A stretch of 64,000 nt of DNA, from contig OY969927.1 of the NCBI GenBank assembly GCA_963704655.1, positions 640,001 to 704,000 on the forward strand, given 5' to 3'. Under the pieces are notes generated by a model that had not been told where the DNA came from, ran no database searches, and saw nothing but the letters and a program-made list of their open reading frames with translations. Shown here one piece after another: positions 22,739-59,168 of this stretch; position 1 is the first letter of the stretch; every line of letters starts with the position of its first letter. Origin of the DNA: an uncultured Candidatus Babeliaceae bacterium (lineage in GTDB: Bacteria > Babelota > Babeliae > Babelales > Babelaceae). Both the position numbers and the translations under genes were made by a program.

Positions 22739-22769
22739 TTACCCAAGAACGCGGGCAAGTTTCGGTAAT
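22739..22769 (-). repeat. Displaced duplicate of pilB 3' end
   Basis: Encodes ITE(+1 nt)LARVLG*; 26/30 to 23470-23499, all substitutions synonymous. Confidence 0.85.
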
Positions 22770-22794
22770 TTAGCGCAATTAAAGAGCATGAATT

Positions 22795-23466
22795 TTAATT
22801 TTCAACAGCGTCTTTATCAAAACTACCTATTGGTAATTGCATGGCAACAAAAATTTCTCGCCAAGCTTCTGGGTCGCCTTTCCATGTATAAGGATCAGGC
22901 TGCCTTAAATGAAAGTTAACAACATTATCAATATGCCAATCTTCTTTGGCAGTTTCATTGCCATCCAAAGCGAGTAAAGTAAAATTATTATTACCACGCA
23001 AGACTATAAGCAAATCTGCCAATGCACGAGATTGTTCCTGCGTTATTCTTTTACGAATAAAAAGAGGATTTTCACTTTCAATAAGTAATCTTAAAAACCG
23101 CTCAATGCGCCGAATACCTTTTTGCGCAATTGCATCATAATCTTTTAAAAAATTCTCTTCAACTTTAAAACCGTGTATCCAGCGTGTATCATATTTTTTA
23201 TCACGTATATATTCTTCTGTACCCGTATCAACCAATTCAAAATTGTCTATGTCTAAAAAGCCATCAAACCGATTTTCAAGAATCTTATATAATGAATCAA
23301 AAGGGGTAATAAGCCAATCAAATGGCAAGGCATACTCCCGCAGCCCATGTTCCTTCATTTGATATGCTAACTGACAATCACCACCTAAATTAATAAGTGC
23401 ATCATATGGCTGCTGCGCACATAGCCAAGGGTAAAAAAATAAGATCAAATTAAAAAATTTACTCAC
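22795..23466 (-). CDS. Putative papain-like cysteine peptidase (DUF1796-like)
   Basis: INLGGDCQLA, LPFDW, RRIERF, LFIR motifs. Confidence 0.7.
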   Translation of the reverse strand: MSKFFNLILFFYPWLCAQQPYDALINLGGDCQLAYQMKEHGLREYALPFDWLITPFDSLYKILENRFDGFLDIDNFELVDTGTEEYIRDKKYDTRWIHGFKVEENFLKDYDAIAQKGIRRIERFLRLLIESENPLFIRKRITQEQSRALADLLIVLRGNNNFTLLALDGNETAKEDWHIDNVVNFHLRQPDPYTWKGDPEAWREIFVAMQLPIGSFDKDAVEN

Positions 23467-23469
23467 GCG

Positions 23470-56430: not shown

Positions 56431-56450
56431 AAGAGAGCCCTTCTGGTAAA

Positions 56451-56477
56451 ATTCTTACGATTCTTACCAATAAGAAT
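56451..56477. promoter_or_regulatory. Probable TA autoregulatory operator
   Basis: ATTCTTAC twice and inverted ATTCTTA-ccaa-TAAGAAT upstream of antitoxin. Confidence 0.5.
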
Positions 56478-56519
56478 ACCATAGGCTTACTTTCAAAACA
56501 ATATTAAACTCTATAAATT

Positions 56520-59168
56520 TTAAAACGCATTACCTAATGTCAAAAACCACGCATACGAAGCTTGGTCATAGTAAGATTGGTTGCCGGGGAATTTTTTCCA
56601 TTTCCACCCAATATCAAAGCGCAATGGCCCAACAGGGGTGTTCCAGCGTAAGCCAAAGCCAGAGGCACCAATAATATCTTTTGCATGAATATCGGTAATG
56701 GCACTTTGCGTAAGAAGCCCAATATCAGTAAACAATGTTCCACCAAGTGATCTAAAAATCGTAAAACGCAACTCAAAGTTGCCATTCATCATAGTTTTGC
56801 CACCTGTGGGAACAACAATAACTTCTTGATTGCAATTAGTGTAAAAGTTTAATGGTGGAGCAAGATCCGGTTCATAACCACGCAACGAATAAGCACCGCC
56901 TAAATAAAATCGCTCTGGTGGCATTATGGCAGAAAATTGCTGATACACAATTGTCCCCAAGCGTAAACGTATTGCTAACACGGTATGCGATGGCTTGTGC
57001 AGCGGAATATAACTTCCCTGCTCTAATAAAAATTTTATAAAAGCAGCATCGCGAACTCCTAAAGGAGCAAATGCTTTTGATGAAAGAACTAAGTACCAGC
57101 CTGCAAGTGGGTCAAGGCGATTATCAACATCACTGACATATACTGACGGCTCACAAAAAAAGTAGGGAATTCGTTTATCAACAAAGCGTGTAGTAAAATC
57201 TATTGCCTGTGAAAGCGTTTTTGAAATATCAGAAATCTGCATCCAATCAATACCGCTTGTTAATCCCCACTGGAAACCAAAAATATCTTGCGATAAACCC
57301 CATAAAAAACCATCTTGTGCGTAACGGTATAATATTTCACGTGAACCGATAACAACTGGCTGATCATAACGGTTACTATAAAGTTTAAATTGCTGTTTTA
57401 TCGGCAGGTTACCTAAAAATGCTAATTGATACATAAGCATGGCATACCGTAAAAAACGTGTAATATCAAACTGCACAGAAAAAATATCTGCTGCTTTGCG
57501 TGGATTTTTCCATAAAAATGTTCCACCAAATTTATATGTTGCACCGCCGCGCCAGGTGAAGTTGGTACCAACACCTTGAAAACCTGCACGCGCACGCACT
57601 TCAAATGGGTCACTATCTTGTAGCTGAATATGGACTATCTTTTCATCTTCTTTTGTAGCGATGTTTTCTGGAAATACCGTTACCTGATCAAAAACACCAA
57701 AATTGCGTATCATTGCCGCTGTTTCATCTAACTTTTTTTTATTCCACGTATCACCCTTTTTATACTTTACCGCTCGTTCTATAATAGTATTTGACACGAT
57801 ACAAGAACCTTTAATATGTGTAGCACCAAAAGCAACTTTTTTGTTATCAGAAAAATGCCATTCTAAAACATGCTCGCCATCGTGCATAACAAATTGGGGT
57901 ATTACATGGGTGTACAAATACCCTTTTTCATGCAACTGTTTTTGTAAAAACTTTCGCATGCGCCCAATAAGAGTGCTATCTACAATTAACGGTATCTTTT
58001 GTTGTAACGTAACGTGTTGCTGTTGATAATAGGGTGCATGTTTTTTACACCAACTTTGACGATAGAGTAATGTTAAGAGCCCTTCAAAATCTTCGCCTAT
58101 AATTTTTGTTACAGTCAGTTGCTCGCCAAGATCAACGGTAACAGCAAGTTCATAGTTCCCCGATGGTAACTTATGCATCTGTGTGTCATGAATTTTAACT
58201 TTCCAATATCCCTGCTGAACAAGATATAATGTAAATGCTGATACCGCTTGCAATATTTTTTTATGATCATAACGCGTTGAAACAAGTCCCTTAAAGAATG
58301 CGCTGCGTTGAATTAAACAATCGTCAACGCCATGAACACTTACACGCTCAATTAAAGCTTGTGAACCTTCTTTAATAGAAAATAAAAGATTTAATGGTTC
58401 ATCGTAATACTCAATTTCGACATCTAAATAACCCTGTTTATGATAACGATCACGAAGCTCCTGAGCAAGTAACTCGGGTGGAATTATAGGTAGCGCTTTA
58501 CCAAACTCTGCACATGTCTGATACAACTGTTGCGCAGTAAAAAAAGAATTTCCAACAAATGTAAACCTTTTTTTATCATGCAATGAACAGTTAAATTGAA
58601 TATCAACAAGGGAATTTTCATCATGTCTTAATTGTTCCATTTCAATAGATGCAAAGAGATACCCCTTTTTTGCAAAGTAAGCAGATATCATTCGTGCCTG
58701 AGCATCAAGCAAATCCTGTGCACAGTATGCATTTTTTAGACGCGATTCAAGACGCTGATGTAATTTTTTAAAAATCTCTTCAACGCCATCTTTTTGCACG
58801 ATTTCATTTCGCAATTGACAGGTAACTGAACGTATCGTAAATAGTGGCCCTGATTTAATCGAAAGGTGCACATGCGCGGTATGGCGAGTTTGATCAAAAT
58901 TAATACGTGATTCTACATGGGCAGTAAGATACCCAAGTCGCTTAAGATACTTTTCAATTGCGCGTATACCATCTTCATGCTCTGCCTGTTTAAATGGTAC
59001 GCCTTTTGAAAGTCGATAAAGTTTTTTATAGAGGTCTTTGCCGGTAAAAATACCGGAAATTGAAATTTTACGTATAGTATATTCGGGTAAATTTTCAGCA
59101 GCTAAGTTTATACTGCTTGTGCACAGGTACAAAATTATATGCATGATCAAAAGATGTACGCGTTTCAT
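56520..59168 (-). CDS. Omp85 (BamA/TamA) family protein with POTRA domains
   Basis: RFYLGGAYSLRGY, GFGLRWNTPVGPLRFDIG, terminal F. Confidence 0.9.
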   Translation of the reverse strand: MKRVHLLIMHIILYLCTSSINLAAENLPEYTIRKISISGIFTGKDLYKKLYRLSKGVPFKQAEHEDGIRAIEKYLKRLGYLTAHVESRINFDQTRHTAHVHLSIKSGPLFTIRSVTCQLRNEIVQKDGVEEIFKKLHQRLESRLKNAYCAQDLLDAQARMISAYFAKKGYLFASIEMEQLRHDENSLVDIQFNCSLHDKKRFTFVGNSFFTAQQLYQTCAEFGKALPIIPPELLAQELRDRYHKQGYLDVEIEYYDEPLNLLFSIKEGSQALIERVSVHGVDDCLIQRSAFFKGLVSTRYDHKKILQAVSAFTLYLVQQGYWKVKIHDTQMHKLPSGNYELAVTVDLGEQLTVTKIIGEDFEGLLTLLYRQSWCKKHAPYYQQQHVTLQQKIPLIVDSTLIGRMRKFLQKQLHEKGYLYTHVIPQFVMHDGEHVLEWHFSDNKKVAFGATHIKGSCIVSNTIIERAVKYKKGDTWNKKKLDETAAMIRNFGVFDQVTVFPENIATKEDEKIVHIQLQDSDPFEVRARAGFQGVGTNFTWRGGATYKFGGTFLWKNPRKAADIFSVQFDITRFLRYAMLMYQLAFLGNLPIKQQFKLYSNRYDQPVVIGSREILYRYAQDGFLWGLSQDIFGFQWGLTSGIDWMQISDISKTLSQAIDFTTRFVDKRIPYFFCEPSVYVSDVDNRLDPLAGWYLVLSSKAFAPLGVRDAAFIKFLLEQGSYIPLHKPSHTVLAIRLRLGTIVYQQFSAIMPPERFYLGGAYSLRGYEPDLAPPLNFYTNCNQEVIVVPTGGKTMMNGNFELRFTIFRSLGGTLFTDIGLLTQSAITDIHAKDIIGASGFGLRWNTPVGPLRFDIGWKWKKFPGNQSYYDQASYAWFLTLGNAF

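Follow-up and report, generated by a model that had tools for sequence, protein, structure and literature searches.

Short cargo genes between duplicated 3' ends of housekeeping genes in an uncultured Candidatus Babeliaceae bacterium

Results

Core genes with a second tail beyond a short cargo

This study concerns three sites in a 64,000-nt stretch of DNA from an uncultured Candidatus Babeliaceae bacterium (contig OY969927.1, positions 640,001-704,000; assembly GCA_963704655.1), hereafter the window, at which a core gene is followed by a short cargo and then by a second copy of the core gene's own 3' end. The genome is a single contig of 1,298,077 bases with 38% G+C (called G000), and it was compared with five other species of the same genus (G001-G005, of which G004 is the sister species) and with individually fetched loci (L-numbers). 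Coordinates at the three focal sites are window positions and those at all other sites are positions on G000:C1. The tail copy that ends the core gene is termed P and the distal copy, beyond the cargo, is termed D; domain names come from a Pfam profile search of the open reading frame (ORF) products. An initial annotation had proposed the three sites, and all of them were present on re-reading of the minus strand, on which every focal feature lies. The common layout is core gene, co-oriented cargo of 0.66-1.14 kb, and D, which comprises the last 8-20 codons plus the stop. The lack of a nearby recombinase stands, with no integrase, transposase or other recombinase family matched by Pfam in the 38 ORFs of window 19-61 kb, and so does the duplicated tail itself, which had at first been given narrower limits (10-13 codons).

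At the first site, the core gene encodes a T2SSE-family (PilB/PilT-like) ATPase of 390 aa (23470-24642; PF00437, E 2.8e-127), with orthologues at 72-87% identity in all five same-genus genomes. Its P, stop included, occupies 23470-23499 according to sequence reading and comparison with relatives. The cargo gene, which encodes a 223-aa protein of the papain-like peptidase family DUF1796 (22795-23466; PF08795, E 8.6e-20), opens with a GTG start 3 nt beyond the core gene stop. D was identified by sequence reading at 22739-22769, where it repeats the last 10 codons with a 1-nt insertion and is, because of that insertion, in register for the last 8 codons only; P and D are identical at 16 of 21 nt. 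Directly after D lies a hairpin repeat element with a 7-bp stem by folding (22690-22733), whose folding energy is no better than that of shuffled sequence (z -0.8) and which by eye shares its motif family with the mini-inserts of two further tail-duplicate sites.

The second core gene, metG, encodes a methionyl-tRNA synthetase of 645 aa with a C-terminal tRNA_bind domain (39637-41574; PF09334, PF01588) and is present in all 41 related genomes. Sequence reading and repeat comparison place P, of 20 codons including the stop, at 39637-39696. The cargo is an orphan WD40/beta-propeller-like ORF of 397 aa (38440-39633), so described from weak Pfam propeller matches, all but one of which fall below cut-offs. 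The 20 codons of D (38440-38499, by repeat comparison) are read in frame as the C-terminus of this ORF, supplying its last 19 residues and stop. P and D agree at 42 of 57 nt, with nine synonymous and four non-synonymous codon differences. A terminator-like hairpin with a U run directly follows D (38390-38431, -22.9 kcal/mol, z -5.65); folding revealed no comparable hairpin after the metG P, nor at the proximal copies of the focal sites generally.

At the third site, the core gene encodes an Omp85/BamA-like outer-membrane protein of 882 aa (56520-59168; PF01103, PF07244) with orthologues in G001-G005, and its P lies at 56520-56555 by sequence reading and repeat comparison. The cargo (55878-56430) is a toxin-antitoxin pair consisting of a mazE-like antitoxin gene (56197-56430; PF04014) and a mazF/PemK-like toxin gene (55878-56267; PF02452). 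D, found by repeat comparison at 55827-55862, is identical to P at 27 of 33 nt and is directly followed by a GC-rich hairpin with a U-rich run (55793-55819, 7-bp stem, -14.7 kcal/mol), which again folds no better than shuffled sequence (z -1.16).

Recurrence across the genome

The last 30 nt of each of 1327 non-overlapping ORFs were compared with the 5 kb downstream on the same strand at a threshold of 23/30. At least 23/30 was reached by 33 of the 1327, compared with 11 in five permutations of 1327 pairs (2.2 per genome), and by none when the reverse complement was scanned. Tandem paralogues account for 20 of the 33 matches, leaving 13 that are not. A scan with the last 7 residues and stop (at most one mismatch, any frame) returned 32 genes against 2.8 expected, 15 of them non-paralogous; among these was pilB, which the DNA scan had missed because of its indel. 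The genome-wide search that had been proposed along with the three sites therefore gives a frequency far above expectation, and chance is excluded as the source of the pattern.

The other affected genes, named from a reading of their translated products rather than by a family search, are mostly housekeeping genes, including RF1, grpE, an FtsW/RodA-type gene, the ATP synthase alpha subunit gene (atpA), a cysteine-synthase-like gene (cysK-like), a SpoU-type methyltransferase gene and a membrane transporter gene. The phenomenon is also wider than first noted, extending to hairpin inserts without a gene, to a GIY-YIG nuclease gene and to multi-tail arrays. At grpE, two tail copies enclose a GIY-YIG gene as cargo (Pfam E 1.1e-14). 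Hairpin-only inserts of 33-95 nt lie between tail copies at G000:C1:191638-192800, 65066-66830 and 1202654-1202960, the sites of the RF1 gene (copies 21/21 identical), the membrane transporter gene and a small ORF (the latter two with four silent differences each), which indicates that tail duplication needs no cargo gene. A 547-aa gene (G000:C1:806540-808246) is presumably GroEL-like judging by its ending GGMPGMY, and a copy of its last residues and stop lies 63 nt downstream. Two more candidate tail-duplicate sites lie at 900532-901773 and 1113235-1114200.

Tandem duplication of a tail together with the downstream gene was considered and rejected for the focal sites, as their cargo is unrelated to the DNA after D. 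By tblastx and blastn, cargo and post-D DNA were unrelated at nine of the 11 sites tested, including all three focal ones; the exceptions were a weak match at atpA (36 aa, 33%) and a 51-nt palindrome in common at another site. In a genome from another genus (G008), 286 kb in overlapping 20-kb pieces with 224 tails gave three matches of at least 23/30, none convincing, against 3 of 223 after permutation; this result neither supports nor refutes a wider distribution, since about three sites would be expected at the G000 rate.

Cargo and hairpins

Inserts range from 33 to 1653 nt. At the nine clean cargo sites, every cargo ORF is co-oriented with its core gene, starting 3-90 nt beyond the gene stop and ending 0-100 nt before D. 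Besides the DUF1796 protein and the WD40-like orphan, the cargo set comprises two MazF/PemK pairs, a single GIY-YIG nuclease and seven proteins of 148-278 aa without a family; in Pfam, the 10 non-focal cargo proteins gave one GIY-YIG match, one PemK match and eight without a family. Twelve of the 13 cargo proteins are single-copy in the genome, and the GIY-YIG protein has five further copies. The earlier suggestion of effector acquisition did not find support; most cargo proteins are orphans, and the N-termini of the family-less ones were judged signal-peptide-like by eye. Three sites have hairpin repeats of one family between their tail copies, and a repeat of this family also directly follows the pilB D. 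Since the cargo is co-oriented and sits between a housekeeping gene and that gene's presumptive original terminator, it is probably co-transcribed with the housekeeping gene.

Divergence between the tail copies

P and D were compared over 159 codons at the 12 sites with an ungapped in-frame repeat, after trimming of uncertain boundary codons. Synonymous differences affect 35 of these codons and non-synonymous ones 8, with differences at codon positions 1, 2 and 3 numbering 10, 2 and 38, respectively. Random single changes would be 23% synonymous (binomial p 9.6e-16), and the three focal sites alone show the same excess with 15 synonymous and 5 non-synonymous differences (p 2.8e-6); the untrimmed counts are 35:16 for all sites and 15:7 for the focal ones. 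A model in which P was constrained and D had decayed freely since an in-place duplication predicts about 37% synonymous differences, against the 35 of 43 observed (p 3e-9). The synonymous excess therefore indicates that both copies evolved as working gene ends, in agreement with the coding constraint that the initial annotation had proposed from fewer sites. The count behind that proposal, 15 synonymous out of 16 substitutions, was reproduced with narrow repeat limits (pilB 4, metG 7, Omp85 5, with one W>C), but wider limits give 15:5 by adding four conservative residue changes in the metG repeat.

The degree of divergence varies among sites. Seven of the 12 repeats differ by 10-30%, almost exclusively at silent positions, and P-D identity at pilB, Omp85, cysK-like and metG is not above the identity between species. 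At the other five sites the copies are near-identical, for example 109/111 nt at 885180-885830 and the full match at the RF1 gene. At 11 of the 12 sites, P and D resemble each other up to the stop codon and no further. At site 65066-66670, an identical stretch of 24 nt is followed by 30 nt with five differences, and D matches G004 and G003. Repeat length also differs between species at one and the same gene, with 19 and 61 codons at metG and with 12, 22 and 32 at Omp85.

Tail duplicates in related genomes

In G004 and G003, the pilB gene carries a single tail and abuts a convergent 292-aa gene, with no cargo between them, and in G001 and G002 other small genes occupy this place with no tail duplicate. 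The DUF1796 gene is missing from the pilB site in all of G001-G005. Counting G000, 31 of 201 genomes of the order have homologues of it; the closest (51-56%) belong to other families of the order, and the one same-genus match is only 32-33% identical, which fits a horizontal origin. Compared with the pilB tail of G004, D is identical at 19 of 21 nt and P at 16 of 21.

The six genus members each have their own gene content between metG and the next conserved gene. In G003, metG has a tail duplicate of its own, 183 nt long and identical at 160 of 183 nt, around an unrelated cargo; its first ~140 nt are ~94% identical and carry G003-specific states, and its last 43 nt are 67% identical. Of 28 metagenome metG loci, L095 and L115 (match without the C-terminus) and L094 and L107 (less than 100 nt downstream) were dropped, and a second metG tail was found in one of the remaining 24. 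This locus, L116, comes from a distant metagenome lineage whose metG C-terminus is 48% identical; its copies (L116:196-255 and 1762-1821) flank a 500-aa ORF on the opposite strand and differ by three synonymous changes and one non-synonymous change. A further metagenome locus, L091, appears to come from the same organism as G001.

At the Omp85 locus of the sister species, an orthologous mazEF pair (MazE 93.5%, MazF 79%) is located ~2 kb further from its Omp85 gene, with a similar hairpin after mazF. Three tails are found there, namely the working tail (L023:374-526), a 32-residue copy behind a 138-aa ORF (1068-1166) and a 22-residue remnant, shortened at its 3' side, directly upstream of mazEF (2385-2455). 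This array can be read as a series of insertions at the gene end, in each of which the tail then in use was pushed downstream. The cysK-like gene has a second tail in G004 as well; its last 43-57 residues are repeated 3.3 kb downstream inside a 217-aa open frame (L037, G004:C5:377-541), an arrangement that resembles the metG tail fused to the WD40-like ORF.

Element machinery and DNA uptake

Two tyrosine recombinases were found genome-wide, at 389 and 530 kb and thus more than 100 kb from the focal sites; both were judged Xer-like by size. No reverse transcriptase match was found in the genome, and a search for a shared attachment core or cleavage site found no 7-mer common to more than two of the 12 repeats. 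The genome has intact RecA and DprA as well as T2SSE ATPases. The sole ComEC match (PF03772; G000:C1:1045948-1046376) spans positions 8-153 of the 270 in the profile and is interrupted by two in-frame TAA codons; going by this sequence, the DNA-uptake channel may be broken or split.

Discussion

A reading as scars of gene gain by host recombination

Combined, these results may be read as scars of gene gain through host recombination, in which short accessory stretches were captured from related lineages by homology-anchored events with no element-encoded recombinase; the probability of this reading is put at about one half. Incoming DNA from a related lineage would carry the same housekeeping gene's 3' end and, attached to it, a short accessory stretch, which could be a gene for a small secreted-type protein or for a nuclease, a toxin-antitoxin pair, or a hairpin repeat alone. 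It would pair with the resident gene via shared coding sequence, and the foreign tail and stop would become the working gene end (P) with the cargo behind it. The far end of the insert would be joined within the last 8-60 codons of the resident gene, displacing the resident tail and terminator downstream as D. This far junction would be an illegitimate one, or it would form through homologous pairing of the resident tail with a remnant that the cassette had brought along. The two tails of the resulting P-cargo-D unit could then provide the homology arms by which the unit spreads to other lineages or is exchanged in them, and repeated events at one gene would produce arrays of the form gene-cargo-tail-cargo-tail. 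Within this scheme, we infer from which donor and in which direction the transfer took place, which recombination pathway was used and how the DNA entered.

P continues its gene in frame seamlessly, and the boundary between cargo and D is without homology on the cargo side; nothing consistent in the way of microhomology was seen by eye at the cargo/D junctions, where divergence blurs the boundaries. Host recombination fits the seamless proximal and abrupt distal junctions, the silent divergence, the variable repeat length and the lack of a recombinase. The identity switches inside repeats, after ~140 of 183 nt at G003 metG and after 24 of 54 nt at 65066-66670, fit a crossover to the right of the distal junction, or a cassette that carried a tail remnant. 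In a simple Campbell insertion, a uniformly diverged donor should leave even divergence along the repeat, and this model suits the two repeats less well. The proposal of cassette integration by short homology is in keeping with the coding-type divergence, with the empty or differently filled sites of relatives and with the missing recombinase; the joining itself may have been of the Campbell type, one-sided with an illegitimate join, or of another kind.

Several observations weigh against capture from related lineages. One-sided homology-facilitated joining usually deletes, rather than duplicates, recipient DNA. The argument from identity switches is not strong, because the identical block in G003 overlaps in part with a stretch whose DNA is conserved in all species. 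The comparison with relatives, covering five relatives and seven sites, provided the empty pilB sites that had been anticipated, but it did not indicate which copy is ancestral: at positions where P and D differ, 22 agree with P and 19 with D in G004, and the native-looking copy is D at pilB and 65066-66670 and P at grpE and Omp85. The five near-identical sites are explained just as well by a plain target duplication or by a donor belonging to the same population. Both metG copies share the state NGAQLS, seen in no other sampled species, and both atpA copies share YVPINL, absent from the other sampled species, implying either that the donor was a close relative or that the duplications arose in place. 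In the search for donors, pilB was not found within 1.5 kb of DUF1796 homologues at any of 11 fetched loci, and for the WD40-like cargo there were no homologues at E<=1e-8 in 40 other family genomes and no close relative, other than itself, in a large protein collection. DNA uptake had been suggested as the route of entry; RecA and DprA are intact, but the partial ComEC match with its two stops makes uptake by transformation doubtful.

The same evidence bears on four rival explanations. Nuclease-driven, homing-like spread would begin with a break near a gene end, made for example by a GIY-YIG enzyme, and its repair would copy a re-spelled, resistant tail together with adjacent DNA, so that the focal cargos would be passengers or replacements of the nuclease gene. 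Such spread would account for the GIY-YIG gene between the grpE tails and for the hairpin repeats between tails at three sites and after the pilB D, given that GIY-YIG proteins with cognate hairpin repeats are present in six genomic copies; it also has a mitochondrial precedent with the order foreign tail, ORF, native tail and with synonymous divergence (PMC3630166, in the part consulted). It is nevertheless considered unlikely, since a nuclease occurs in none of the three focal cargos and in one of 13 cargo proteins overall, one of the six GIY-YIG copies lies between duplicated tails, the repeats have no widely shared candidate cleavage sequence, and the metG and Omp85 sites are without the hairpin-repeat motif. 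A second rival is insertion in place with a long, variable target duplication, by illegitimate recombination or staggered-break repair, of which only stop-spanning cases would survive and later diverge or undergo gene conversion. According to the part of PMC2853133 consulted, target duplication of this kind is known for restriction-modification cassettes that lack mobility genes, mostly from species with natural competence. The identical or nearly identical copies at five of 12 sites, the frequent sharing of lineage-specific states and a few gene 5'-end remnants upstream of long genes speak for it. The 35:8 ratio against an expected synonymous share of 0.37, and the end of similarity at the stop codon rather than in the 3' flank at 11 of 12 sites, make it an improbable account of the sites.

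Integrase-bearing islands and prophages that enter gene 3' ends carry a replacement end with synonymous differences, and the repeats could on this basis be the attL and attR of decayed site-specific elements that have lost their integrase. This origin appears very improbable: no integrase lies in or near the focal sites and only the two Xer-like recombinases exist genome-wide, the inserts measure just 33-1653 nt, at least 12 target genes share no common core, and repeat length varies at the same gene across species. An assembly artefact, in which strains assembled together were joined into chimeras, would draw on the probable metagenomic derivation of the genome, but it is hardly credible. The same architecture is found in the separately assembled G003, G004 and L116, the WD40-like ORF is on record together with its metG tail on three contigs, cargo genes between the copies are not a product of strain collapse, and short contigs from three other studies match parts of the loci without any difference. 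These public-read contigs are short and of low depth and come from four runs; none bridges a junction, and no cargo-skipping joint is found among those listed.

Relation to known systems

Integrase-borne islands and prophages resemble the sites described here in having a duplicated gene end with silent differences around foreign DNA. They need an integrase and a defined att core and span kilobases to tens of kilobases, and neither feature is present here. Integrons hold short, co-oriented, mostly promoterless cassettes behind a promoter with repeats between them, and the G004 Omp85 array looks alike; however, no integrase or attC-type structure is found here, and each repeat is a copy of the end of the adjacent housekeeping gene.

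Among the closest known systems are the mitochondrial mobile-ORF (mORF) gene hybrids of Glomus sp. atp6, atp9, cox2 and nad3 and of Allomyces macrogynus atp6 (Beaudet et al. 2013, PMC3630166; here and below, the comparisons draw on parts of the papers cited). Those hybrids consist of a gene core, a foreign C-terminal piece, an ORF and a native remnant, an order met here at the three focal and nine further sites. Their copies are far apart in DNA and little so in protein, some of their inserts are in phase, as is the metG D, and they were likewise read as horizontal transfer of a gene end with a passenger. In the fungal organelle, however, a LAGLIDADG or GIY-YIG ORF is held to drive mobility, whereas 12 of the 13 cargo proteins here are not nucleases and at least 13 sites lie on a bacterial chromosome. 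The native copy of the mORF hybrids also clearly matches the sister species, in contrast to the inconsistent polarity found here.

Insertion of restriction-modification cassettes with long target duplication (Furuta et al. 2010, PMC2853133), linked by its authors to natural competence, similarly involves small units without mobility genes and variable direct repeats of >30 bp, some of which overlap gene 3' ends; the focal repeats here are 31, 60 and 36 nt long. The repeated sequence is single-copy in a related genome, as is the case for pilB in G004 and G003. In the described cases, the repeats are near-identical (44/46, 417/423), are not bounded by the stop codon and enclose restriction-modification cargo, and the lower identities of the focal repeats given above differ from them in this respect. 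Homology-facilitated illegitimate recombination in transformation or conjugation (PMC3240628) shares with the proposed events one homologous and one illegitimate junction, short linear DNA and no element enzyme, although it is a laboratory phenomenon from other phyla, described in Acinetobacter and pneumococcus. A limited literature search, which does not establish absence from print, found no description in bacterial chromosomes beyond the long-target-duplication papers, and the combination of many sites per bacterial chromosome, non-nuclease cargo, silently diverged tails and tail arrays was not found described.

Possible significance

Classical mobile elements are few in Dependentiae and other reduced intracellular bacteria, whose secreted and accessory gene sets nevertheless differ greatly among species. 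A route of gain through host recombination and a conserved gene end could explain this accessory turnover, and it would place new genes under the transcription of essential genes. Going further, housekeeping gene ends might act as the portable homology arms of a recombinase-free cassette system in Dependentiae, whose cassettes, each between two versions of a gene's tail, would enter any relative with that gene, replace one another and stack into arrays; this extension is offered tentatively and is rather doubtful. If true, it would amount to an integron-like platform on essential-gene promoters that provides reduced intracellular genomes with addiction modules and with secreted proteins for host interaction. 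The scars are computer-detectable as last codons that recur downstream with silent changes and could therefore be used to map, date and order gains in arrays and in other phyla. The finding also connects mORF hybrids, long target duplication in competent bacteria and homology-facilitated illegitimate recombination in the laboratory, which are not set side by side in the consulted parts of PMC3630166 and PMC2853133.

Neighbouring genes and shared gene heads

Between the pilB D and the 292-aa gene (window 21404-22654) are a 303-aa orphan gene and a 94-aa nucleotidyltransferase (Polbeta/NTP_transf_2) gene, neither of which is at that place in G003 or G004. A tail duplicate of the 292-aa gene, which faces pilB, was looked for and not found, so that the 303-aa and 94-aa genes would have been gained here, or lost in the relatives, without a detectable scar. 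The stretch between metG and a conserved 124-aa gene beside topA (window 34369-39633) contains, in addition to the WD40-like ORF, a 306-aa ORF and genes for a hemerythrin-domain protein, a polysaccharide deacetylase and an M15 peptidase.

Some neighbouring small genes share near-identical, signal-peptide-like first 20-25 codons (27-30 of 30 nt) and are dissimilar in the rest (tblastn E<=1e-3). Such pairs lie at G000:C1:720295-721150, 496003-496706, 996276-997902 and 622471-623431, and about 18 of 22 head matches are of this kind; these shared heads are a different matter from the tail duplicates. Remnants of the first 20-29 codons are also found 1.5-1.7 kb upstream of long genes at G000:C1:1167473-1169575 and 196259-197575, and these may be the 5'-end counterpart of the tail duplicates.

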